Source: Thermoproteota archaeon (GTDB taxonomy: Archaea; Asgardarchaeota; Jordiarchaeia; Jordiarchaeales; Freyrarchaeaceae). From it: DNA of 28,813 nucleotides. The position numbers and the translations under genes were made by a program. The notes below the pieces were generated by a model. That model was not told the origin of the DNA and searched no databases. It worked only from the letters and a program-made list of their open reading frames with translations. The stretch covers positions 1 through 28,813 of the forward strand of contig JAPDJY010000052.1 of assembly GCA_029258835.1 (NCBI GenBank), given 5' to 3'. Of this stretch, positions 12,128-24,226 are shown in pieces. Positions within the stretch are counted from its first letter, which is position 1. Every line of letters starts with the position of its first letter.

Positions 12128-13585
12128 TTGTTGGCTTTCAGTTTACTGGAGGTACCGGATTTGGAGGGGTTCAGGAAGAAGGTGGATGCAATCGTTGAAG
12201 CCGCCGACAGCTTCAGGGTAAGGGCGTTCTTCTACGGAGAAGAAGAGGTAATTAATGCAGGAAAACTTACTAAGGAGGAATTTGATAGATACCTAGAATA
12301 CCTACTTGATGATGAGTTTAAAAGACGGATTGTTTTGAAGATTATATGCGAGGAGGGCGAAGCAACTATAGGTCAAATAGCCGACAAGGCAGGTTTCTCA
12401 AGGATTGAAGTATTAAAACATGTTAATTTGCTGGAGTACGAGGGGAATGTTAAAAGAAGGGGAAGTAATGGAAACGCGGTTTTCACAGCGAGTGAAGGGA
12501 AGACTAGGTCTGCCTACGAAAAAATAAAGTTTATCGTGGACGCAGGGCTTTGCACGGGATGTGGAAGCTGTGTTTCAGCGTGTCCTGTTTCGGCCATAAG
12601 GTTTGCTGATGAAAAACCAATGATTGATGAGGAGACATGCATCGGATGCGGGATCTGCAACGTTCACTGCCCTAGAACGTTTCTTCCAGCTAGCTTGCTT
12701 GGAGAAATCGTTAAGGGCGAACCGGTGGACTTAGAGGTGGAGCCACTTTCCTACTTTAGGAAGGCGTACACTGCTCAGTCAGCAAAGGAAAAAATAAGGA
12801 TGGTCTGCCAGGACGGAGGGGTAGTAACAGCCCTTCTTGCATATCTCTTCGATCAAAACATTATAGACTGTGCTATAGGAGTAAGGAGGGCAAGCGAGGA
12901 TTGGAGGCCAGAGGTAACACTCGTTACGAACATAGACGAGCTGCTCGAAACCGCTGGAACAAAATATACTATTGCCCCTTCCATCTCAGCTTTAAACACT
13001 GTTAAGGAGAAAGGGCTGAGAAGAGTTGCTATAGTCGGAGTTCCCTGCCAGATACATGCGGTTAGGAAAGCTGAAATATACTCGTCAGAACTACTTAGGT
13101 CCTTAGGGGAACCTGTTATTCTTATAGGGATCTTTTGCATGGAGAACTTTAGCCATAAAGCCTTAAGAGAGATAACAGAAAACCACTTAGGGGTTAGCCT
13201 TGAAGACGTTATCAAGTTTAACATTGATAAAGGGAAATTCTTTGCATACACAAAGGAAGGAGAGGAAAAAGCAGTACCAATAAAGGAAATAGCCAAGTTA
13301 GCGAGGCATGCATGCCATTACTGCCCTGACCTGACTAATGAGTTTGCAGATATATCTGTTGGCTCAATAGGGTCAGCGGCTGGGTGGTCAACGGTTCTGG
13401 TGAGAACACAGAAGGGTGAAAAAATATTTGAAGAGGCACTAAAAGCAGGTTACATTACAGCCGAACCATTACCGGAAGCGAGCATGAAAACACTTCAAAA
13501 ACTAGCCAAGGGGAAAAGAGAAAGAAACCTTAACGCCTTAGAGAGAAGAAGAGAAGAGAGACAATACGCAACACTCATTTTGTAG
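12128..13585 (+). CDS. FrhB/FdhB-family F420-interacting subunit with N-terminal winged-helix-like region and 2x[4Fe-4S] ferredoxin domain
   Basis: CTGCGSCVSACP and CIGCGICNVHCP; QDGGVVTALL, AGTKYT, VGVPCQ, GIFCMENF, CHYCPD..ADISVGSIG. HTH-like ATIGQIADKAGFSRIEVLKHVNLLEYEG. Confidence 0.9.
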   Translation: MLAFSLLEVPDLEGFRKKVDAIVEAADSFRVRAFFYGEEEVINAGKLTKEEFDRYLEYLLDDEFKRRIVLKIICEEGEATIGQIADKAGFSRIEVLKHVNLLEYEGNVKRRGSNGNAVFTASEGKTRSAYEKIKFIVDAGLCTGCGSCVSACPVSAIRFADEKPMIDEETCIGCGICNVHCPRTFLPASLLGEIVKGEPVDLEVEPLSYFRKAYTAQSAKEKIRMVCQDGGVVTALLAYLFDQNIIDCAIGVRRASEDWRPEVTLVTNIDELLETAGTKYTIAPSISALNTVKEKGLRRVAIVGVPCQIHAVRKAEIYSSELLRSLGEPVILIGIFCMENFSHKALREITENHLGVSLEDVIKFNIDKGKFFAYTKEGEEKAVPIKEIAKLARHACHYCPDLTNEFADISVGSIGSAAGWSTVLVRTQKGEKIFEEALKAGYITAEPLPEASMKTLQKLAKGKRERNLNALERRREERQYATLIL

Positions 13586-13734
13586 TCAAGTTTAGGTGAG
13601 AAAGTGGTGGCTTCAACATTCCAGCTTCCTTTCTTAAAAAGAGAAACGTCTTTGAACGTTCATTATTCACAGACACTTTCCACAATAACATAATTTGCCA
13701 TATTCAAAAATTTAAGGTTAAAAAGAGGTTGGAA

Positions 13735-14868
13735 TTAGAGGCGCTTGGTTATTATGTTGCCCTCATTATCTTCTATGGTTACTTGGTAGCTTTCGGCTTT
13801 TTCGCTATATTCGAACTCGGCTTCTTGATCGGGTAAAAGAATGCTTATTCCGTGAACGTAGGGTTTGACTTCGAAAAGTTCCTCTTTGATTCCGCTTATC
13901 CGTACCGTGATACCCTTCAGGGTTCTGCCTGATTTGTTCTTAACCTTAAAGCGTGGAGTGGTATTTCCCTGAGACATCGTTACCTCAATGGATTGCGGCT
14001 CTAAGTTGGAGAGAGGTTTAAACTTCTCCGCTACCTCCTCGAAAAGGTGTTCTTCAATTTTTTCCTCCGTTACGACGTTTATTGGTATTTGGAACTTTAC
14101 AGATTCCCCGCTGACCATTGCACATTCCACTTCAAGGTACCATCTAGAGTAGGCGCCGAACGTTAAGGACCAGTAGGTTACCTCTGGCGGCTCCCAGAGG
14201 TAGTTATAGCTTGGCTCAGCATATCCTGGAATCTTTAAGGTGATGAAGCCTGAGCCGGGATTTCGCTCCTCGACGGACATCACCTTCTCACCCGGCTGCT
14301 TTTTAACGTGAGCACATACTGCCCGGTACTGTGGACATGAGCAACGTATATTTGCTTCATGGATAAGGCTGACCGTTAATACTTTAACATTTTGGGTGAA
14401 GTAATTAAGCTTAACTTCGTCCCCAGGTTTAAATGTGTCGCGATCCATTATGAACCGCATTCCTTTAATGCTCATTGACACGGGGGTCGGTTCAGCCGCC
14501 ACCTTCGCTACGAGGGTAACAGGCTTCTCGGCGGATAGACGACGTTCTTCTTCACGGGTTCCCGGCTTCTTCACGGAAAGTACTGCTTTCAAGGTATAAT
14601 TAACTTTGTTGGGGATAGATGGGACGACGCGCCTACTAATGATCAATTCTCTCGAACGAACATACTCGCCTTTGCCTATGACGCCCTCGCAGAAAACTTC
14701 ATTGCTTGCAACCGTGAGCTCGTTGCCACATGGTAACGTAGTGGAGAGGATGAATCCTCCCCACCAGATCTCCATATCCTCGTCTATGTCAAACACTACT
14801 CTAGTCTTTAACGAGCCGCCCACCTCTGCTACATTACTTGAAAACAGCTTTATCGACATGGACCACAA
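13735..14868 (-). CDS. Arrestin/Vps26-fold-like protein (two beta-sandwiches) with the shared C-terminal domain
   Basis: GEYVRSRELIISRRVVPS..VNYTLKAVL resembles the arrestin-N pattern. MDRDTFKPGDEVKL...LKIP...PS...WYLEV...FQIPINV resembles arrestin-C. Cys-rich insert CSCPQYRAVCAH. Assigned by pattern only. Confidence 0.6.
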   Translation of the reverse strand: MWSMSIKLFSSNVAEVGGSLKTRVVFDIDEDMEIWWGGFILSTTLPCGNELTVASNEVFCEGVIGKGEYVRSRELIISRRVVPSIPNKVNYTLKAVLSVKKPGTREEERRLSAEKPVTLVAKVAAEPTPVSMSIKGMRFIMDRDTFKPGDEVKLNYFTQNVKVLTVSLIHEANIRCSCPQYRAVCAHVKKQPGEKVMSVEERNPGSGFITLKIPGYAEPSYNYLWEPPEVTYWSLTFGAYSRWYLEVECAMVSGESVKFQIPINVVTEEKIEEHLFEEVAEKFKPLSNLEPQSIEVTMSQGNTTPRFKVKNKSGRTLKGITVRISGIKEELFEVKPYVHGISILLPDQEAEFEYSEKAESYQVTIEDNEGNIITKRL

Positions 14869-14892
14869 CCCGAAAAAGTTTTGATCAGAAGA

Positions 14893-15813
14893 CTACCTTT
14901 CAGTATGTGCTCTAACAACTAAGTCTGCGAACACCTCCATGTCCTTTAGAAGAGCTTCGACCTTTTCTTCGTCTTCCCTACCGAATTCGCCTGCCTTCAT
15001 TATTAGAACTGCCAATACGTACTTGAACAAGTTTAATATTAATTCCTTGTCGCCGTCCTTAGCTTGACCCGTGAATGATGCCGAGTCGCTCATGAAAAAG
15101 TTTTCCCTCAAGTTGTTGCATGCTGTTATGAAGTCTCTTAAATCCGCTCTGAGCTGCAGGCCGGTGCTGACTCCTTGAACATTGTGAACGATTACGTTTC
15201 CGGCAGTATCGCTTATAATAACTTTCGCCGGGATCTCAGCCAACTGCTTCTGCGCGGTTTCTAAGTGCTTTTGGAGATCCTCGTAGTGGGCCACTAAGAT
15301 GTCTCTAAATATTTCTGCGAGCCTTTCCTGTTCATAGATAGAAGTCACATAGTAACGTGCCTCCCATTCATCGAAGACCTCACTGAAAATTTTTCTTGCA
15401 GCCTCCAAGTTCTTGTCCAGCAGTTCTCTGGCATAGTCTTCAACGTCATACTTGTGGAAGAAGACGTAAATAGACGGTTTAAGACCCTCTTTCTTAAAGA
15501 ATTCAAGCACTTTCTGGAAGTATTTTTTAGCGTCCTCAAACTTGTCTGGGTCATGAAGGTCGATTACAGGGATTAAAATGTCAGTACCAGCGAAAACCTT
15601 AGGGTCGCTAAGATATGACTCGATGTATTGCTCTTGGCCTCCGAAGTCAAACAGGCTCACATCAAGGCCCAGAAAGGGATGCCGCCGAACCTCGTACATC
15701 ACGGTAGGGGCTATGCCTTTCGTTTCCTGAGGTTTTTTCCCGGCAAAAGTTGTTAGATATATACTTGTCTTTCCACTGCCAGCTAGACCTATTAGTGAAA
15801 TCTTCACGCTCAT
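14893..15813 (-). CDS. Rag/Gtr1-like small GTPase with C-terminal roadblock-like domain
   Basis: GLAGSGKTS (G1), APT (G2), FLGLDVSLFDFGGQ (G3), FFHKYD (Rag-type HKxD G4), TSIY (G5); C-terminal VIISDTAGNVI roadblock-like strand. Start placed at ATG 15813 with GGAGGG SD. Confidence 0.88.
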   Translation of the reverse strand: MSVKISLIGLAGSGKTSIYLTTFAGKKPQETKGIAPTVMYEVRRHPFLGLDVSLFDFGGQEQYIESYLSDPKVFAGTDILIPVIDLHDPDKFEDAKKYFQKVLEFFKKEGLKPSIYVFFHKYDVEDYARELLDKNLEAARKIFSEVFDEWEARYYVTSIYEQERLAEIFRDILVAHYEDLQKHLETAQKQLAEIPAKVIISDTAGNVIVHNVQGVSTGLQLRADLRDFITACNNLRENFFMSDSASFTGQAKDGDKELILNLFKYVLAVLIMKAGEFGREDEEKVEALLKDMEVFADLVVRAHTER

Positions 15814-15869
15814 CCCTCCAGCTTCACTATACAGGGGGAAAGGTAAGGGCTTCAAATATATTTGTTTTA

Positions 15870-17369
15870 TTATTTCTTGAGCTCGGACGGTGAAATACGC
15901 TTCATCAGCAGGGTGCCATGCCTATCAGCGACCCTTAGCAGATATTCTCGTTCATTCCGGACGCGTGGATACTTGAACTCAAGCTCCTCTGAGGGATGCC
16001 ATATCTCAATAGTAGTCGTCCAAGCGTTCGTCTCAAACAACTCCTCTACATGTGAAATTCTAACATTTACATCATAAAGGACTTTCCCGGTGTTATTTTT
16101 TAAGATGACTAGAAGGGAAGTACTAGCGTCTGTAAGGGAAGTTTCAACGATCTTAACGGGAACTCTGCCAGCCAACTTAACTACCTGAGCCGACTCCTCT
16201 TCTAATGGTATAGGCCCAGCCTTCAATTCAAGTTCGGCTACTGGAACTTCTGGGGTGCGGACCACATACGTTCTACGTCTCTTGACGGTATATAGTTGAA
16301 CCTTCTTTACACGAGCTAAGTTTAACACGCTCACTAGTCCTTTCCGATCTAAAGGCTCGACTTCCAAGAAACCCTTATCTACAGCCCCTTGAAGAAGCTC
16401 GAGAGCAATAGGTGATCTTACGAGAACTGTTGAGTATCCTTCAGGAGAGCCTACACTTCCAACGGAAATGTCAGCGTCCTCGGATGTTAGGTCAGAGCAG
16501 AAATAGCAGCTTGAAGCCCGATATTTATCCAGCCGGCTTAAGGGGTAAGACGCGGTCTTTCCATCATAGTAAACGTTGAACTTTCCAGCGGAAATGCTCA
16601 TCTTTGAAATAGACGATAATGGGATGCCTTCTTCCTCCTCGAAAAACTCCTTTAAACCTTCATAGGAAAACGAATCCATGCAGAACAGCCCAATTTTTAA
16701 AATGTTCACTCGCATAATGAGGGGAAGAAGACCCATAGGGAAGCCTTGCATCTTTTTAACGGCTGAAATATTGCAGGGGGTTCCAACGAAGGCGATGGAA
16801 GTTAAGCCCTGCTTTATAGCATCAACAAGTGCTTTAACCGTATAGCTATGAGAGTAAACACTACCCGCACCATTCAGAATGTCCTCCTCTGTAGTAGCTA
16901 CCACGGCTACGGGCCTCCAGGGCTCATCCTTACTTTTGTGCGTCACCACGGCTCCGTCGATAAGCCCCTCCCTCAAGGCATAGAGAAGTAAACTGGTAAC
17001 TACACCCCCATCCTGACCACGCACCTCGCTAAGAAGAGACTTAGCCCTGTAAGCGGAAATAAAGCTTCCCACAAGGTCCTCCACCCGCGTCATGGTCCTA
17101 GGACATACATTATAGCAAATGCCGCAGGCTGTGCACTTACCTACCAGTGTTGGACGGCCGTCGATTATTTCTATGGCCCCTTCAGGACACGACGCGACAC
17201 AGGCTGAGCACTCGGTGCATACGCCTGAAAGGATGACATGGTTTTGTAGTCTTCCAAAGTTCTCAAACTTCTTCTCCTTGAGAACACGTTCAGGGTAAAA
17301 GTAACTCACGTATGCATCTTCATTTGGCGTTGACATCGTGTCACCTTCACACGTCTTTTCCGAGCTCAC
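15870..17369 (-). CDS. FrhB-family Fe-S flavoprotein fused to the shared C-terminal domain
   Basis: CTECSACVASCP and CTACGICYNVCP; GQDGGVVTSLL, VGTPCN, GLFCMDSF, CYFCSD..ADISVGSVGS; extra ~140-aa C-terminal extension. Confidence 0.88.
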   Translation of the reverse strand: MSSEKTCEGDTMSTPNEDAYVSYFYPERVLKEKKFENFGRLQNHVILSGVCTECSACVASCPEGAIEIIDGRPTLVGKCTACGICYNVCPRTMTRVEDLVGSFISAYRAKSLLSEVRGQDGGVVTSLLLYALREGLIDGAVVTHKSKDEPWRPVAVVATTEEDILNGAGSVYSHSYTVKALVDAIKQGLTSIAFVGTPCNISAVKKMQGFPMGLLPLIMRVNILKIGLFCMDSFSYEGLKEFFEEEEGIPLSSISKMSISAGKFNVYYDGKTASYPLSRLDKYRASSCYFCSDLTSEDADISVGSVGSPEGYSTVLVRSPIALELLQGAVDKGFLEVEPLDRKGLVSVLNLARVKKVQLYTVKRRRTYVVRTPEVPVAELELKAGPIPLEEESAQVVKLAGRVPVKIVETSLTDASTSLLVILKNNTGKVLYDVNVRISHVEELFETNAWTTTIEIWHPSEELEFKYPRVRNEREYLLRVADRHGTLLMKRISPSELKK

Positions 17370-17428
17370 TTGAACTTTATTGGATGCCTTAATATAAAAA
17401 TTATCAAAAAAAGCTACGCTCTTTCGGG

Positions 17429-20044
17429 TTACTTTACTTTACTGTATTGCCTCCTACCTTTTCTGGTTTTCCTGCTTTGGTAGGCTAAGACTATTATGCC
17501 TAGCATTAGTACCGCTACAGATACTATTATAGGAGAGCGCGTCCCCTTGATTATTACAATGGAGAAGTTTAATTGGGTTGGGTGTCGAGCTACGGTTATT
17601 GTTATCACGTCTGAAATGGCTGTTTTCCCATTTGAAGACGAAGCCGTTGCATAGATTTGGATAGCTGAGTCTTCAAGCATAGCCGTGTCTACTGAAAGCG
17701 TAACAGACGGAGCTGCCGTGCTGTTTTTCAGTATTTTCTGAGGTGTTATGGCAGTCACTGTAAGGTTTATAATATCGTAGGGGCTGTCAGCTGTAACCTG
17801 TATTTTGAGAAGAGACCCATGTTTAATCTTTTCAGGCGTTACAATGTTGAATGCTATTGGAGAGAGATCCTTTGCCAGCCACTCGCAAAGTGACTTAAAT
17901 AACTGGAGATTGCCTTCTTCGAAAACTGTTTTATTTTTCCATAGATCTAGGTCTGATATAAAAACTACTCTTCCACGCTCCCACGTTATGGATGAAGCTA
18001 TAGTGAATATGTCAGATGTACCGTTTAGGGTTGCCTGAACTTGTATTAGGGGGAAGCCTCCTTCTACTGTTCCAGCTCCTCTCACTAATACCTTTTTAAC
18101 TTTAAAGGTTTGCGGCGTTGGGGGGCAGGTTGCCACTATGTCTTGGCTTGGAGGTAAACCTGCTTTAAGGGGGCCGCCGGTGAATCGCACATTAAAAATT
18201 TGTGCTATCTTGTTTGCGTCATCCGCAAGGGTGCTATTCTCTTCCCCTATTATGAGGAGGCTGCCGCCGTTCCGGACGAAGCCCCGTATCGCTTCGATCT
18301 CCTTCTGGCTGTAGTCCTCTGAGGGATAATAAATGATTAGGATATCAACGTCTTTTAGAGTTTCATACGTAATTTGACTGTTAAGGACGTGAAAGAGGAA
18401 TAAGGATTGGGAAAGGGATGCTCTGAGAGAAGCGGTACTATTCCAGAAGCTCATGTACCTTGAGGAGCCCTTCTGATGATACTCGTCAACCAATATGTTG
18501 ATGGGGGTGCCTACCTCTAGCGACAACTGCGTAGGGAGGTAGCCTGCTTTCGTAATAGTTAGGGTGTAATTGCCACGTTCAGGGCAGGGAAAGCGTACTT
18601 CGCCTTCCTCGTCTGTAAGATAAACATGGTAGTAGTTTATCCCTTGGATTGCAGTAAGGGCGCTAGCAACAGGGTTTCCGTTTTCGTCAAGGACCCTTAG
18701 AGACGCAATCTTCCCAGGTGTAAGCCCTGTAGCACTCACTTGGAGAAATCTTGGTTCTCCAAGGTAGACGGAGAGCTCGGGGTCTCCCAAAAGGATGTAC
18801 TCTAAGAATTCCTGCCTGAACGTTGCGTTCCCTTCTATTAGGCCTCTATATGTCTCGTAGTATTCCTCCCTAGCTTTATAAAGGGCATATCCTGGACGGT
18901 GAGCGAAGGGTTCACTTGCTGTGAAGAAGTTTTTGAAGAACGTGAAGTCGAGGAATGTGTCTGATGCATCGCTTACAGAGTCGCCTCCAAAGCTCGTTCT
19001 AGTTGGTCCTACGACTGCGATGGCGCCTCCGGCAGGAGCCTTTAATAAGGATTCACCTACCGAGTCCCCCGGAGCATCCACCATAGCTCCCGAACAAGCT
19101 GAAATGTAAGCGAAGGGGAGGCGGGGGGCGTTAAGTAAGCTATCCGCTTTGGTGGAAGTATAGTAGGCAACCCCGTTCCGAGTTGTGAAGAGAGAAGTAC
19201 TACTACCGTGGGAGCAAAGGTTAAGTATGGCTACGCCCTCATTGACGCATTGTATGAAGGAAAACTCTGTGAGGTTAGCGATGTCCCTGCGTGAATCGTA
19301 GGCTAGGAGGTTAACCTTAGCCTGCGGGAAAACCTGGAGAATAGTGTGCTTAGCTCTCCATCCTTGAATGTCGCGTTGAGGGTCTATTTCTCCTCCTACT
19401 AGGAGTACGGTGTTCATCCATGGGCCGGCGTAGTCCTTGATGTGCTGCTCGTACATTAAAGTTTTGTTTATAATTATTTCTACCTCTGTTTTCGATGACG
19501 CCGGGATCCTGCCTACATACACTTCTGGAACCCAATCGATTTCACCGGGTTCACCGTAGCGACCGTCGCCGTCCTTATCGAAAGAACCGTTAAGAGCAGC
19601 ATAATAATAGTCTGAAGGAATAAGTGAGCTTCCAACAGTAAAGTATCTTATGGGGATCTTGTCAATGTCCCCCACAAGTAGAACCCACTGAATGCCTTCG
19701 GCATCGTACATAGCTTTGATGAAGTTACGTATTTTGGTGGCGTTATCCTCTCCACTAAAGTTAGCATATATGGATGTGACAGTGTACACCTTTGATGGGA
19801 TACCCTTTAAGGTCTTCCATCTAGCAAGAGGCATGACAGCGTCTGCCCAGCTAGGATCTCCTACTATGATAACATACTTTACACTGTTAACATGAAGGAG
19901 AACGGGAGTTATGGGCGGGGCTACATTTTCCTCCTGATGGAGGATGGGGGTGACCCATGGAGGAGGGGTAACGGCGGTTAGGGGGAAGAGTATTGCCGCC
20001 ACGAAAAAGATGATGAAAAAGCTCTTGAGGACATTTGACTTCAA
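17429..20044 (-). CDS. Membrane-anchored gingipain-like (peptidase C25) protease with GIFT/DUF4350-like domain
   Basis: N-terminal signal/TM segment; WVLLVGD, SDYYYA, VYVGRIP, catalytic SHGS and SAC, YILLGDP; ILVDEYH...FVRNGGSLLIIGE domain; C-terminal TM helix with basic tail. Confidence 0.85.
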   Translation of the reverse strand: MKSNVLKSFFIIFFVAAILFPLTAVTPPPWVTPILHQEENVAPPITPVLLHVNSVKYVIIVGDPSWADAVMPLARWKTLKGIPSKVYTVTSIYANFSGEDNATKIRNFIKAMYDAEGIQWVLLVGDIDKIPIRYFTVGSSLIPSDYYYAALNGSFDKDGDGRYGEPGEIDWVPEVYVGRIPASSKTEVEIIINKTLMYEQHIKDYAGPWMNTVLLVGGEIDPQRDIQGWRAKHTILQVFPQAKVNLLAYDSRRDIANLTEFSFIQCVNEGVAILNLCSHGSSTSLFTTRNGVAYYTSTKADSLLNAPRLPFAYISACSGAMVDAPGDSVGESLLKAPAGGAIAVVGPTRTSFGGDSVSDASDTFLDFTFFKNFFTASEPFAHRPGYALYKAREEYYETYRGLIEGNATFRQEFLEYILLGDPELSVYLGEPRFLQVSATGLTPGKIASLRVLDENGNPVASALTAIQGINYYHVYLTDEEGEVRFPCPERGNYTLTITKAGYLPTQLSLEVGTPINILVDEYHQKGSSRYMSFWNSTASLRASLSQSLFLFHVLNSQITYETLKDVDILIIYYPSEDYSQKEIEAIRGFVRNGGSLLIIGEENSTLADDANKIAQIFNVRFTGGPLKAGLPPSQDIVATCPPTPQTFKVKKVLVRGAGTVEGGFPLIQVQATLNGTSDIFTIASSITWERGRVVFISDLDLWKNKTVFEEGNLQLFKSLCEWLAKDLSPIAFNIVTPEKIKHGSLLKIQVTADSPYDIINLTVTAITPQKILKNSTAAPSVTLSVDTAMLEDSAIQIYATASSSNGKTAISDVITITVARHPTQLNFSIVIIKGTRSPIIVSVAVLMLGIIVLAYQSRKTRKGRRQYSKVK

Positions 20045-20120
20045 CGTCCCACCCTAACTTAAGTAAGGAGAACAACAGGTTGGAAAACACCAAGGGCACC
20101 TACCGGCGAGGGGGTCCTAC

Positions 20121-21233
20121 CTAGTATATGTCCTCTTCTAGCTTCTCTTCCTCCTTTGATATTAACTCTTTAACTGAAATTTTTTTCACAAGAAGTTTTT
20201 CCGTCACGTCTTCCACTTTAATTATGTATTCTCCGTTATTGTCGACCCGCGGAAATACGAAGACAAGACTTTCTAGGGGGAACCACAACTCCACGTTGGT
20301 GGACCAAGAATATGTCTCAAAAATGTCTTGTATGTGGCTTATCGTTATCTTGATGTTTTCAAGCCCCTTTTCCGACGTGTTCTTAACGGTTATCTTCAGC
20401 TTTTTCCCCTGCTCCACTAGCTCCACGCCTTCTAGCTCAACGGGGCTTTCATGCGTTAGCTCGACAGGCCTAGCTTCGATAATGCTCTTCTCAGAAAGAG
20501 GAATGCTTCTTATGGGTGCTTGCCCACTATAAAGGTGGCTGAGAAGGAAGTAAACGAGGCTCCTCTGCTTCTCAGCATCATATTGTAGTGCTTCAATCAC
20601 CCTCTGTGACACTTCAGGTATTGCAGATTCGCAAATGTCCTCTAACGTAGTTTCTATCTTAGAGCTTTCCTCAATTATTTTCCGGTCCTCTTCGCTTTTA
20701 ACCGGTTTAACCGCTATTTCCTCTCTCATTATGAGGATGTAAAGTTGGTCGGAAAGAGATTCTTGTATTTTCCTCCTCAGGATCCTGAGGAGTTCCTCCC
20801 CTAAAGGCTTTGCTATCGACACAGGTGTGCTCACGATGAGCACGAAAACTTCCTCTGTTTCCTCGGTCATGCCAGCCCTCTGTTTTCTCCTAGCAGACTT
20901 AGCTGCAAACTTCGTCGCAGAATACACTTTACCGCCAAACTCCAAGTCCACGTGGTCTACTTCTTCTTTAAACTCGTCGACGGCAAGCCACCAGACAGGG
21001 TGACGCTGAAGAATCCTTAAAATATTCTTATCGTTTTTAAGGTGGCTTGGAATGGTGAAAAGGACAAGGTGTCCCTTAATCTCGTGAAAACAGCAAAGGT
21101 ATATTTCGATGAACTCGGAGAAAAAGGATGCACGTGTATCCGTGACAGCCTCAATAGCACCATCCTTTTTCTCCGCGAAAAACGGCTTAAAGCCGCTTTC
21201 ACTTGACTTGTCTAAATGCTTCTGCTCAGCCAT
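20121..21233 (-). CDS. Longin/uDENN-like protein (folliculin/NPRL2-like N-terminus) with the shared C-terminal domain
   Basis: IYLCCFHEIKGHLVLFTIP resembles the first hairpin of the FLCN/NPRL2 longin domains. Arg-rich loop KSARRKQRAG precedes the VFVLIV strand and a helix. Confidence 0.6.
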   Translation of the reverse strand: MAEQKHLDKSSESGFKPFFAEKKDGAIEAVTDTRASFFSEFIEIYLCCFHEIKGHLVLFTIPSHLKNDKNILRILQRHPVWWLAVDEFKEEVDHVDLEFGGKVYSATKFAAKSARRKQRAGMTEETEEVFVLIVSTPVSIAKPLGEELLRILRRKIQESLSDQLYILIMREEIAVKPVKSEEDRKIIEESSKIETTLEDICESAIPEVSQRVIEALQYDAEKQRSLVYFLLSHLYSGQAPIRSIPLSEKSIIEARPVELTHESPVELEGVELVEQGKKLKITVKNTSEKGLENIKITISHIQDIFETYSWSTNVELWFPLESLVFVFPRVDNNGEYIIKVEDVTEKLLVKKISVKELISKEEEKLEEDIY

Positions 21234-21252
21234 CCTTCAACCCTCAGAAAAC

Positions 21253-21729
21253 CTAGTAGGTTTCACTCCTGGCCTCCGGGGAAACAGGTCTAAGCTCAAT
21301 GTTGTAATAACGTGCATATCTTCTGAAACCATCGATCCACTTCTTACTTATCACACCGACGAGCTTACCGCTCTTATCGACAACCCCGACTCGTTTTATC
21401 TTAGTCTTCTCGAAAAGCCCCTTGATCTCGTCTATCGAGGCATCCGCATTCACCGTAAGTATATCACGGAACATGATGTCCTTCGCCTTGTACTGGCGGG
21501 GGTCCTCCTCTTTAGCGATAAGCCTGAAAATAGCACCATCAGTTATTATCCCTACAACTTTGTCATCATCGTTAACGACGAAGACGCTGCTCACCCAGTT
21601 ATCAACCATAAGCTGAGCGACACGGGGAATAGGGTCGTCTTCTCTGCACGTGACGATATCTCGCATCGCAATGTCCAAAATGGAAAAGCCACGCTTTTGC
21701 GATCGCAACGCTAGCACCCAAAAAATCAT
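21253..21729 (-). CDS. CBS-domain pair protein
   Basis: SSVFVVNDDDKVVGIITDG and RVGVVDKSGKLVGVISK. Start trimmed from 21888, which overlaps the divergent gene and AT-rich promoter DNA. Confidence 0.85.
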   Translation of the reverse strand: MIFWVLALRSQKRGFSILDIAMRDIVTCREDDPIPRVAQLMVDNWVSSVFVVNDDDKVVGIITDGAIFRLIAKEEDPRQYKAKDIMFRDILTVNADASIDEIKGLFEKTKIKRVGVVDKSGKLVGVISKKWIDGFRRYARYYNIELRPVSPEARSETY

Positions 21730-21844
21730 TAATACCACGCTGAATATAACATTTATGTAAAAAAGAGAAAGTTCGTCAAAAAAGAAACAGAAATTAAGGG
21801 GAAGCACCAACTTATAGAGAGATAGTGATAAAAGAAGAGGGAGC

Positions 21845-24226
21845 GTGAGGGAGATAGAACAGATTTGGTCCCCATCAGAGAGGCTCACCGAGAGGATTAG
21901 AAAACTTAGAGAAGAATACTTCTCGTTTGAAAAAAGGGAATACTTTAGAAACGAGGTAATTCCCTATACTACAGGCACTCCATGGGATGAAGTTTTCTCA
22001 TACCATGACTGGGGGGTAGCTCCCGAGGTATTCCCATTCCTCCCAGCTATGAGAGATTCCTTGAAGGCTTTAGCGCAGAAGGTGGAGTTACCTGAAGGTT
22101 TTTGGAGAAAGAGCCTCCCGGTTAGAAGAGCGATCTTCTTCAAAAAAGTGATCGAGGAATACCTCCCAGTAAAAATCCTTGATGGGGAACTCATAGTGGG
22201 GTCGCACTTCAACACGGCCCTCTCCAAATGCTTCACTAAGAAAGAAGCAAAGAAATGGCGTAAAAGAGAGGAGAAGTGGTTCAAGAAAATGGTTGAGCTG
22301 TCGGACTTAGGCGTCATGAATTGTGGAGCGATACCAGGCCACATAATACCAAACTACAAGAAAGTTCTAGAAAAGGGGTTCAAAGGAATAAAAGAAGAAC
22401 TCGAAGAATGGCTGGAAAAACATACAGATAAAGCCAAAAGGGACTATGTCAAAGCAATGATAATAGCAGTAGAAGCGGTGAAGAGGTTCGCGGAAAGGTA
22501 TGCTGAGGAAGCGGAGGCACTCGCCCAAAAGGAAAAAGACGAGGAAAGGCGAAGAGAACTCTTAGAAATAGCAAGAATATGCAGAAAGGTTCCATGGGAA
22601 CCGGCTGAAACATTCTGGGAAGCCTTACAATCTGTCTGGTTCACTCACATGCTCGTAATGGCAGCTGAAAGCTACCCTGGCCCAGGACTATCCCATGGAA
22701 GATTCGACCAGTACATGTACCCATATTACAAAAAAGACGTAGAGGAGGGAAGGCTCACAAGAGAGAAGGCAAAAGAACTCCTACAATGCTTCTGGATAAA
22801 ACACAACTATGCCTACGACTACATGGGAAAAATAGGGAACCAAGGCATCAACTCAGGCTTCGGCCAGCTAATAACCCTAGCGGGGATGAAAAAAGACAAA
22901 AACGACGCAGTAAATGAGTTAACATGGCTGATTCTAGAAGTAGCCGAAGAAATAAACATGCTCGAGCCTAAACTTAATGTAAGGATACATAAAAACATAC
23001 CTAGGCCATTTCTCCTAAAAGTATGTGAAATATTAACGAAAACCCAAGGGTCACCATTCCTCATAAACTTCGATGAACAAGCAATAAAAGGGCTGCTCTG
23101 GGAGGGACTACCCGAGGAGGAAGCCATAGATTACGGAGTCGTCGGATGCCTCGAAAACACCGCACAAGGAAAAGACAGGTCAGGCACCGTTGACGTCAAC
23201 ATAAACCTAGCAAAACCAATAGAGTTAGCACTAAACAGAGGATGCGACATGCAAACAGGAAAACGAATAGGTGTGAAAACCAAAGATCCTACAAAGTTCA
23301 AAAGCTATGAGGAATTTGAGCAAGCATACTTCACCCAGCTAAAAAAATGCATAGAAAAAACGTTAAAACTGGCATCTGAAGCAGACGCCATAAGAAGTAA
23401 GTGGGAACCTGTTCCCTACCTCTCAGCATTAGTAGACGGATGTGCTGAAAAAGGAATGGACGTAAGGCAAGGGGGAGCAAAATATAACTTCATCACGGTA
23501 GAAGGAGTCGCGCTCGCGACAGCAGCCGACAGCCTAGCAGCCATCAAAAAACTGGTCTTCGAAGAAAAAGAAATTACAATGAAACAGTTACTCCAAGCAA
23601 TAAAAGATAACTATCAAGGACATGAAGAGATACAAAGAAGGCTGCTTTTCAAAGCACCTAAATTTGGCAACGACGATGACTACGTAGACCAAATAGCAAG
23701 GAAAATATCAAGATACTGGACTCAAGAAGTGTTTAAATACACATCCCCAGCTACAGGGAGACGATACCGTGGAGGCTATCTCTCGTGGAATTACTACATT
23801 GACTTCGCACCGAAGACCGCGGCTACTCCTGATGGGCGTCCCAGGGGCAGGTTTCTTTCGAATGGTGTTCAGCCTGTTCAGGGTATGGATAGGAAGGGGC
23901 CTACTGCAGTTATCCGTTCGGTGGGTAAGCTTGGGTTGGAGACTGCACCTAATGGAGCGTCTCAGGTGATTACTTTGAGTCCTTCAACAGTTAGGGATGT
24001 AGAACACTTGGAAAAGTTGGCGGGGCTGCTGCTGGCGTGCTGCGATATAGGGGGTACTAGTTTGCAGGTTAACATGATTGACCCGGAGATTCTGAGAGAA
24101 GCCCAGAAAAAGCCTGAGGAGTACAGGAACCTTCTTGTGAGAGTTACAGGGTATAATGCGTACTTTGTTACTTTGGGTAAGGAGCAACAGGAGGAGATTA
24201 TTGCAAGAGCTTGCCACGGGATCTGA
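21845..24226 (+). CDS. Glycyl radical enzyme (PFL2/dehydratase-like), substrate unknown
   Basis: Cys loop VVGCLE, Gly loop LLVRVTGYNAYF, GRFDQY, APKFGNDDDYVD, ATPDGR. Confidence 0.93.
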   Translation: MREIEQIWSPSERLTERIRKLREEYFSFEKREYFRNEVIPYTTGTPWDEVFSYHDWGVAPEVFPFLPAMRDSLKALAQKVELPEGFWRKSLPVRRAIFFKKVIEEYLPVKILDGELIVGSHFNTALSKCFTKKEAKKWRKREEKWFKKMVELSDLGVMNCGAIPGHIIPNYKKVLEKGFKGIKEELEEWLEKHTDKAKRDYVKAMIIAVEAVKRFAERYAEEAEALAQKEKDEERRRELLEIARICRKVPWEPAETFWEALQSVWFTHMLVMAAESYPGPGLSHGRFDQYMYPYYKKDVEEGRLTREKAKELLQCFWIKHNYAYDYMGKIGNQGINSGFGQLITLAGMKKDKNDAVNELTWLILEVAEEINMLEPKLNVRIHKNIPRPFLLKVCEILTKTQGSPFLINFDEQAIKGLLWEGLPEEEAIDYGVVGCLENTAQGKDRSGTVDVNINLAKPIELALNRGCDMQTGKRIGVKTKDPTKFKSYEEFEQAYFTQLKKCIEKTLKLASEADAIRSKWEPVPYLSALVDGCAEKGMDVRQGGAKYNFITVEGVALATAADSLAAIKKLVFEEKEITMKQLLQAIKDNYQGHEEIQRRLLFKAPKFGNDDDYVDQIARKISRYWTQEVFKYTSPATGRRYRGGYLSWNYYIDFAPKTAATPDGRPRGRFLSNGVQPVQGMDRKGPTAVIRSVGKLGLETAPNGASQVITLSPSTVRDVEHLEKLAGLLLACCDIGGTSLQVNMIDPEILREAQKKPEEYRNLLVRVTGYNAYFVTLGKEQQEEIIARACHGI

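Follow-up and report, generated by a model that had tools for sequence, protein, structure and literature searches.

A previously unnamed Ig-like domain shared by the C-termini of three unrelated proteins whose genes surround a Rag-type GTPase gene in Asgard archaea

The closest described counterparts of the gene cluster reported here are the Rag GTPase hubs of eukaryotes, namely Ragulator-Rag, GATOR1 with NPRL2/3 and FLCN-FNIP. To our knowledge, the Rag partners of eukaryotes do not share a common docking domain. In Asgard archaea, the partners of GTPases are hard to assign, because the GTPase genes of the Lokiarchaeon MK-D1 generally lie outside operons of roadblock or longin genes (PMC10933270), and the question of which GTPase family partners the FLCN-type longins of these archaea has been left open (PMC12290439). 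Here, we analyzed a stretch of 28,813 nucleotides (contig JAPDJY010000052.1 of assembly GCA_029258835.1, lineage Jordiarchaeia), referred to below as the window, in which a domain of about 90 residues recurs at the C-termini of three unrelated neighbours of a Rag/Gtr1-like GTPase gene. These carriers are an FrhB-like flavo-iron-sulfur protein, a longin-domain protein and an arrestin/Vps26-like protein. The cluster resembles the eukaryotic hubs in that a Rag-type GTPase is genomically linked with a longin protein, whereas the shared domain, the flavo-Fe-S protein and the arrestin-like protein set it apart from them. LAMTOR-like genes were not noticed in the cluster, in a survey that was not aimed at them. 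The literature searched held no description of the domain or the cluster.

Small terminal modules that mark unrelated, co-encoded proteins for one destination are represented by dockerin-cohesin pairs, the C-terminal domains (CTDs) of the type IX secretion system (T9SS) and encapsulation peptides. The Asgard domain is likewise a small, linker-attached terminal module on unrelated co-encoded proteins, but it has no sequence or specific fold relation to any of these, and its carriers are cytosolic. Another likeness is to the ears of adaptins and of the BBSome (GAE_BBS1), which are Ig-like docking platforms in GTPase-regulated trafficking complexes; a kinship with them is not established by profile. 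In structure, the domain is most similar to FN3 and GH2 Ig-like domains (integrin beta4 FnIII-4 4wtx, 6d50, 8q2h and transglutaminase beta-barrels), with which it has in common a seven-strand, two-sheet sandwich (Z 9.4-9.9), at an identity of 8-15% and without a profile match. These examples are mostly extracellular or enzyme-internal, whereas the Asgard domain is appended to the C-termini of cytosolic signalling and redox proteins.

An earlier note on the window, made from the DNA letters alone, had placed copies of one domain at the C-termini of the three carrier genes, and this is where our analysis located them (Table 1). The interval proposed for the longin-type copy does hold the domain, but it also includes a C-terminal helix tail beyond the core matched by the hidden Markov model (HMM). 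The 36 identities previously counted by hand between the longin- and FrhB-type copies were reproduced over 95 ungapped positions, and none of 1000 shuffles reached this number (maximum 18). In BLASTP comparisons, the FrhB-type copy matched the longin-type copy with an E-value of 7e-25 (35/86 identities, 41%, gap-free) and the arrestin-type copy with 5e-15 (27/86 identities, 31%, one gap); the longin- and arrestin-type copies gave no match to each other in pairwise BLASTP. Profile-profile alignment of the three subfamilies with hhalign, using profiles of 17, 21 and 16 sequences, was significant for every pair (FrhB-longin 7.2e-30, FrhB-arrestin 2.4e-18, longin-arrestin 1e-15), so that the arrestin-type copy, rated in the earlier note as the one most at risk, stands in both of its comparisons. 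Judged by these alignments, the three C-terminal copies are homologous. Their carriers are unrelated. A six-frame HMM scan of the 2.72-Mb genome found three copies in all, exactly those of the window. A derivation of the domain from an arrestin lobe was considered and rejected, as hhalign of an arrestin N-part profile against the domain profile gave an E-value of 0.19 and a probability of 0.3%.

The AlphaFold2 (AF2) model of the domain, calculated on a three-row alignment, has a pLDDT of 88.8 and consists of seven strands, A-G, in two sheets. In an exhaustive structural comparison, FN3 and GH2 Ig-like domains matched it with Z 9-10 and a root-mean-square deviation of 2.4-2.8 Å over 87-92 of 95 residues, that is, across the whole domain. 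HAP2 domain 3 and transglutaminase barrels also reached Z 9-10, and no relative stood out. The domain thus belongs to the FN3/Ig-like fold class, in agreement with the Ig-like fold claimed in the earlier note. The more specific kinships considered there, with adaptin ear/GAE, TRAPP or CARDB domains, did not materialize: apart from the generic FN3/GH2-Ig structural matches, only sub-threshold GAE_BBS1 matches were obtained in 3/68 members (best E-value 0.0024; best score 16.3 bits, cut-off 27), and no ear or GAE structure was among the 50 best structural-comparison matches or the Foldseek matches listed. The other Pfam matches of the 68 members, CBM49 (5/68) and FlgD_ig (2/68), were sub-threshold as well. 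Foldseek with the isolated domain against the PDB returned nothing at E ≤ 0.001, searches of PDB sequences with the 3-row and 68-row domain profiles nothing below E 0.2, and the NCBIfam search nothing. The nearest neighbours among ESM Atlas structures were clusters with ~345 residues, named Promethearchaeota ‘hypothetical protein’, and an FrhB cluster with 496 residues, and proteins with the domain are called ‘hypothetical protein’ or FrhB alone in their sources. We conclude that the domain is a previously unnamed sequence family of about 90 residues with a common fold.

The family was expected to be unnamed and rare, and it is: it has no counterpart among Pfam, NCBIfam or PDB sequence families, and a profile search of 1.84 billion representative proteins gave just 89 matches at E ≤ 0.001. 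The full-length proteins among them show the same few architectures. For 38 of the 89, the N-terminal part matched a window carrier in BLAST, comprising 9 arrestin-type proteins (375-395 aa), 8 FrhB-type proteins (5/8 full length, at 478-510 aa) and 21 longin-type proteins (~325-390 aa). The remaining matches were short pieces resembling carrier fragments and long multi-repeat proteins that fit part of the profile. In the latter, which have 800-3600 residues and match in multiple stretches, each repeat covers ~30-40 profile positions and the N-termini are like those of bacterial surface proteins; these matches were therefore set aside as generic Ig-repeat similarity outside the family. A word-based search for longer proteins yielded mainly arrestin-type carriers and no new architecture.

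Among 301 Asgard genomes sampled across the phylum, the domain is present in 106, usually with three copies each; some genomes hold four or five. Sorted by GTDB family (numbered here with an f), it was found in f1 (4/4 genomes), f2 (6/6), f9 (65/68), f21 (21/21), f13 (3/3) and the single genomes of f18, f28 and f30 (each 1/1), with isolated weak matches in f5 (1/29), f19 (1/7) and f22 (1/1). It was absent among the genomes searched of f7 (0/76), f12 (0/19) and f14 (0/11). Orthologues of the window's Rag gene, recognized at E ≤ 1e-40 and by 45-87% identity as against ~30% for paralogues, occur in f1 (4/4), f2 (6/6), f9 (57/68), f21 (18/21) and f18, f28 and f30 (each 1/1); at this threshold none was found in any other sampled family, f13, f7, f12 and f14 included. 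Apart from f13 and the three isolated weak matches, the families with the domain are those with the Rag orthologue. Between them they represent at least five GTDB classes, namely Jordarchaeia/Freyarchaeia, the Lokiarchaeia class (with Helarchaeales-type genomes) and three or more others.

The association with the Rag gene is also evident at the level of gene order. We fetched 80 Rag loci by Rag alignment (loci are numbered here with an L), each with a flank of up to 10 kb, and annotated them with the domain HMM and BLAST. An FrhB-type carrier with the domain is located immediately upstream of Rag and on the same strand in 65/68 loci with enough flank. The arrestin-type carrier with the domain lies within 10 kb downstream of Rag in 43/48 loci and directly adjacent to it in 16/73, and a longin-type carrier is found within 10 kb of Rag in 6/35. 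The full array CBS-longin-(C25)-FrhB-Rag-arrestin is retained in Jordarchaeia and Freyarchaeia (L015-L022), and the array minus the C25 gene in four loci of other lineages (L023, L045, L074 and L089), one of which is titled Helarchaeota. A CBS gene followed by the longin gene occurs in L003, L006, L010, L011, L013, L014, L015-L023, L045, L074 and L089. Scattered gene contexts, which the earlier note had named as a reason to abandon its proposal, were not observed; by both synteny and distribution, the contexts of the domain are tied to one Rag orthologue.

In the maximum-likelihood phylogeny of 34 copies of the domain, the carrier and not the genome determines the grouping. One clade (98/97) unites the arrestin-type copies and another (95/91) the longin-type copies of f1, f2 and f9, and the carrier label changes 4 times on the tree compared to 17 changes expected with shuffled labels. 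Since the copies group by carrier, the fusions are, according to this tree, older than the split of these lineages and have been retained since then, with no sign of recent shuffling. Across 68 aligned copies of all carrier types, N21 (100%), F41 (91%), E42, W53, E57, E58, Y72 and K86 are conserved. From the strand order of the model and the FN3 topology, N21/S23, W53-P55-E57 and D78-G81 would fall in the BC, C'E and FG loops, respectively, and thus at one end of the sandwich. The presence of the same conserved residues in every carrier type fits a common ligand better than three complementary surfaces.

The FrhB-like carrier is composed of a 2x[4Fe-4S] ferredoxin part (Fer4), FrhB_N (FrhB_FdhB_N, 1.4e-23), FrhB_C (FrhB_FdhB_C, 5.2e-43), a linker of ~60 residues and the domain, in this order. 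In the full-length model of the longin carrier, the longin part (residues 38-215) is followed by a disordered linker (235-261) and the sandwich (265-353). The AF2 model of the longin part matched the folliculin complex (6nzd_H, Z 10.7), GATOR1 (8fw5_B, Z 10.5), the longin of Sec22 (Z 10.3) and a Lokiarchaeal longin (8yqg_B, Z 10.2). In the model, it thus has the longin fold (beta-beta-alpha-beta-beta-beta-alpha), with Z values so closely tied that the fold assigns it to no one subfamily. Longins of the FLCN/NPRL2/SMCR8 type, which are GTPase-activating proteins (GAPs), are marked by a catalytic arginine finger and by a GP motif that precedes strand 2 (PMC12290439). In the window's longin carrier (residues 51-62), an invariant G54 is located in the loop between strands 1 and 2 and is followed by His instead of Pro, and an Arg-rich loop (113-122) with the near-invariant G121 is a candidate arginine-finger loop. 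In two f9 genomes, a gene for a GNAT acetyltransferase follows that of the longin carrier.

Three weaker observations support the assignment of the third carrier to the arrestins: a sub-threshold Pfam match to Arrestin_C (E 0.0024; 18.7 bits, below the cut-off of 27.7), precomputed PF02752 matches of two database homologues, and the nearest ESM Atlas clusters by language-model features, which are arrestin families (score 0.91). A profile of the arrestin N-part found nothing among PDB sequences. Four cysteines of the arrestin-like part, C47, C176, C178 and C185, are shared without exception by 17 arrestin-type carriers and may make up a site for a metal or an Fe-S cluster, which would be notable in a redox-linked module. 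No transmembrane or signal-like segment was found in the three carriers, and the linkers preceding the domain are predicted to be disordered.

In part of f21 (about nine genomes), the redox carrier is a different enzyme, a GltD/NfnB-like protein of 577-588 residues (Fer4_20 and Pyr_redox_2) with the same C-terminal domain. An example is the 577-residue protein encoded at L013:6691-8424 on the plus strand. Its gene is the last one of an operon with NuoF-like, NuoG-like and DHODB-Fe-S-like genes and is located ~7.5 kb from the Rag gene, beside a CBS gene and two longin-type carriers; by coordinates, the same spacing between the GltD-like and Rag genes recurs in at least seven genomes. As a different flavo-Fe-S enzyme bears the same tag in the same neighbourhood, this argues that a protein belongs to the module by virtue of its domain tag and not of its enzyme family. 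The CBS gene is tied to the module by the protein P0009 of a Helarchaeota metagenome-assembled genome (641 aa, named CBS protein), which is a longin-domain-CBS fusion; such a fusion is also present in L091, where the open reading frame (ORF) is truncated at the contig end. The Peptidase_C25 protein (Pfam E-value 2.1e-64) also contains CarboxypepD_reg and GIFT/DUF4350 domains; its N-terminus is signal-like and its C-terminus holds an anchor. Only in L003, L010, L014 and L015-L022, all of them Jordarchaeia or Freyarchaeia, does its gene separate the longin gene from the FrhB gene. Because the array occurs without it in other lineages, the C25 peptidase is a lineage-specific insertion outside the conserved module.

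The GTPase of the window belongs to the Gtr1_RagA family (78.4 bits, cut-off 22). The P-loop GxxGxGKT and the motifs DFGGQ and HKYD vary little or not at all among 11 orthologues; Rags typically have HKxD instead of NKxD. The true start of the protein is probably the Met at residue 15 (~15813). Residues 205-320 are conserved, and residues 205-262, which represent the first half of the C-terminal, presumed roadblock region, are conserved as strongly as the switch regions (mean column identity 0.78 vs 0.68 for the G domain; 20/58 positions invariant). Rag is the obvious candidate partner of the domain, and the conserved segment 205-262 points that way, which is suggestive only. A complex prediction of Rag 15-320 with the three domain copies, scored for the FrhB-type copy, gave an ipSAE of 0.00 in two runs without controls and weighs neither way. 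Further Gtr1/RagA-like paralogues occur near the module in other genomes: an f21 genome has two clear paralogues plus a weak candidate within 8 kb (L006:1742-5548, minus strand), and a Lokiarchaeia genome has one beside a longin-type carrier (L008:6154-7098, plus strand).

How might one domain serve such different carriers? With little more than even confidence, we predict that it docks its carriers, by way of a tether, into a Rag-centred complex that unites a redox sensor, a longin and an arrestin-like protein. Homology, fold class, rarity, architectures, synteny and co-occurrence with the Rag orthologue are established; we infer protein binding and its target. We favour tethered docking because a motif is common to the carriers, the linker is flexible, the carriers are cytosolic and the link to the Rag neighbourhood is strict. 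On its flexible linker, the domain would bring each carrier to a common site of the complex, provided by a scaffold that all share or by Rag itself. One GTPase would thereby receive redox or energy input from the flavoprotein and the CBS protein and regulation from the longin, with the arrestin-like protein acting on it as adaptor or effector. A bolder version, in which the redox sensor, FLCN/NPRL2-like longins and an arrestin/Vps26-like adaptor bind the conserved, presumed roadblock half of Rag via the same tag, in turn or together, appears doubtful to us. Several observations speak against tethered docking. The generic fold names no partner, and in most Lokiarchaeia loci the longin-type gene is not close to Rag (6/35 within 10 kb). 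The genomes are related, so that the co-occurrence counts are not independent events and are to be read as a pattern, not a statistic. Finally, the three genomes of f13, two of them closed, keep a single FrhB-type copy and have no Rag orthologue at E ≤ 1e-40; the domain can hence persist without its presumed hub, though its branch there is long.

The f13 copy could be explained if the domain were a homotypic or heterotypic oligomerisation module, in which the copies bind each other by their edges or their faces and join the three carriers into one heteromer without contact to Rag. Such a module would also account for the presence of exactly three copies in most genomes, and in the two f21 loci in which no arrestin type was seen, a second longin-type copy keeps the count at three. 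However, it is identical and not complementary positions that are conserved in all carrier types, and some genomes exceed three copies, so that we consider oligomerisation rather unlikely. A membrane- or lipid-binding beta-sandwich of the C2 or RhoGDI/PDE-delta/UNC119 kind, localising the carriers to the membrane on which the GTPase acts, as lipidated Ragulator does in eukaryotes, would make use of the conserved aromatic residues W53, F41 and Y72. Queried with the full-length longin model, Foldseek listed RhoGDI, UNC119 and PDE6D (E-values between 2e-4 and 6e-4), and with the isolated domain it listed a C2 domain (9e-3), yet the TM scores of the RhoGDI/PDE-delta/UNC119 matches, 0.3-0.45, are no better than those of dozens of unrelated Ig-like domains. 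Moreover, the small GTPases of MK-D1 all lack terminal cysteines for lipid modification of the eukaryotic type (PMC10933270), and we regard lipid binding as improbable. The generic fold would suit a passive, purely structural appendage that has no partner in common among the carriers, spread through ancient shuffling of domains and was kept for its effect on stability or spacing. This is distinctly improbable in our view, as the domain has been kept on three or four unrelated carriers over several classes, its polar loop residues are strongly conserved, it is strictly tied to one Rag neighbourhood, and a redox protein without homology to FrhB acquired it in the same setting. Hardly credible, finally, is a C-terminal tag for sorting or processing like the T9SS CTD, read by the C25-family peptidase of the cluster. 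It is true that a C-terminal Ig-like domain on unrelated proteins is reminiscent of such tags, that a Peptidase_C25 gene stands between two of the window carriers, and that one structural neighbour in the ESM Atlas, a C25 protein, has a Por_Secre_tail (TM 0.76). But outside Jordarchaeia and Freyarchaeia the cluster lacks the C25 gene, signal-like and transmembrane segments are missing from the carriers, one of which is a cytosolic Fe-S flavoprotein, and the Por_Secre_tail profile matched 1/68 members with an E-value of 0.062, which does not make the domain a T9SS sorting domain.

The six genes of the array (window positions 13735-21888) are all encoded on the minus strand and are co-directional, with intergenic gaps of ~14-76 nt; their positions and those of the three domain copies are summarized in Table 1. 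The CBS ORF has a GTG start and a hydrophobic N-terminal extension, and it overlaps the start of the divergent ORF 21845-24226. As the CBS orthologues in the examined loci have 132-187 residues, the listed start is probably too far upstream and an internal Met the real one. A second FrhB-like gene (12128-13585, plus strand) is convergent to the arrestin gene; its product has an N-terminal winged-helix region and lacks the shared domain. It adjoins HdrA-like and MvhD-like genes, an arrangement seen again in the Jordarchaeia loci L010, L014, L015 and L016. In the Freyarchaeia loci L003, L017, L019, L021 and L022, the second FrhB-like gene is more distant, past four genes of ~425 codons each. These are four tandem paralogous genes for proteins of ~423-434 residues, which follow the arrestin gene in Freyarchaeia-type loci (L003:1569-6864, minus strand; L017; L019-L022).

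Table 1. Positions of the genes of the array and of the three copies of the shared domain in the window.
Feature	Position	Strand	Length or extent	Evidence
Arrestin/Vps26-like carrier gene	13735-14868	-	377 aa	Sub-threshold Pfam Arrestin_C, language-model neighbours
Rag/Gtr1-like GTPase gene	14893-15855	-	320 aa	Pfam Gtr1_RagA
FrhB-like flavo-iron-sulfur carrier gene	15870-17369	-	499 aa	Pfam FrhB_FdhB_C, FrhB_FdhB_N, Fer4
Peptidase_C25 / GIFT-DUF4350 membrane protein gene	17429-20044	-	871 aa	Pfam Peptidase_C25
Longin-domain carrier gene (FLCN/NPRL2-like by fold)	20121-21233	-	370 aa, no Pfam match	AF2 fold matches
CBS-pair protein gene, directly upstream of longin gene	21253-21888	-	211 aa as listed	Pfam CBS 1.7e-25
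Shared domain, arrestin-type copy	13741-13986	-	Residues 295-376 of 377	HMM match 4.5e-23
Shared domain, FrhB-type copy	15879-16157	-	Residues 405-497 of 499	HMM match 2.1e-32
Shared domain, longin-type copy	20163-20438	-	Residues 266-357 of 370, then C-terminal helix	HMM match 3.5e-32

DNA nearly identical to window positions 13700-21900 is present in marine, sediment and hydrothermal-vent metagenomes of many studies. In two metatranscriptome libraries from one marine-sediment sample, contigs with a depth of 2-5 map to portions of the arrestin, Rag, FrhB, C25 and longin genes, and one of these contigs spans the arrestin-Rag junction; stretches without coverage carry no meaning. This is a weak hint at expression, with carry-over of DNA as a possible source.

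The module bears on the question of what Asgard archaea do with their many small GTPases, arrestin-like proteins and longins, and which of these proteins work together. The shared tag and the conserved synteny single out one Rag orthologue together with candidate partners, namely a longin, an arrestin-like protein and a redox enzyme. A domain of ~90 residues with a confident predicted fold can be used as bait, so that the composition of an archaeal Rag complex and its possible redox input become testable, and the domain itself is a new family to annotate in several Asgard classes. If the proposal is true, a roadblock-binding tag would couple the redox and energy state of the cell to the GTPase switch, and the module would be a prokaryotic counterpart, or show the precursor logic, of the eukaryotic Rag-Ragulator-GATOR-FLCN nutrient-sensing hub.

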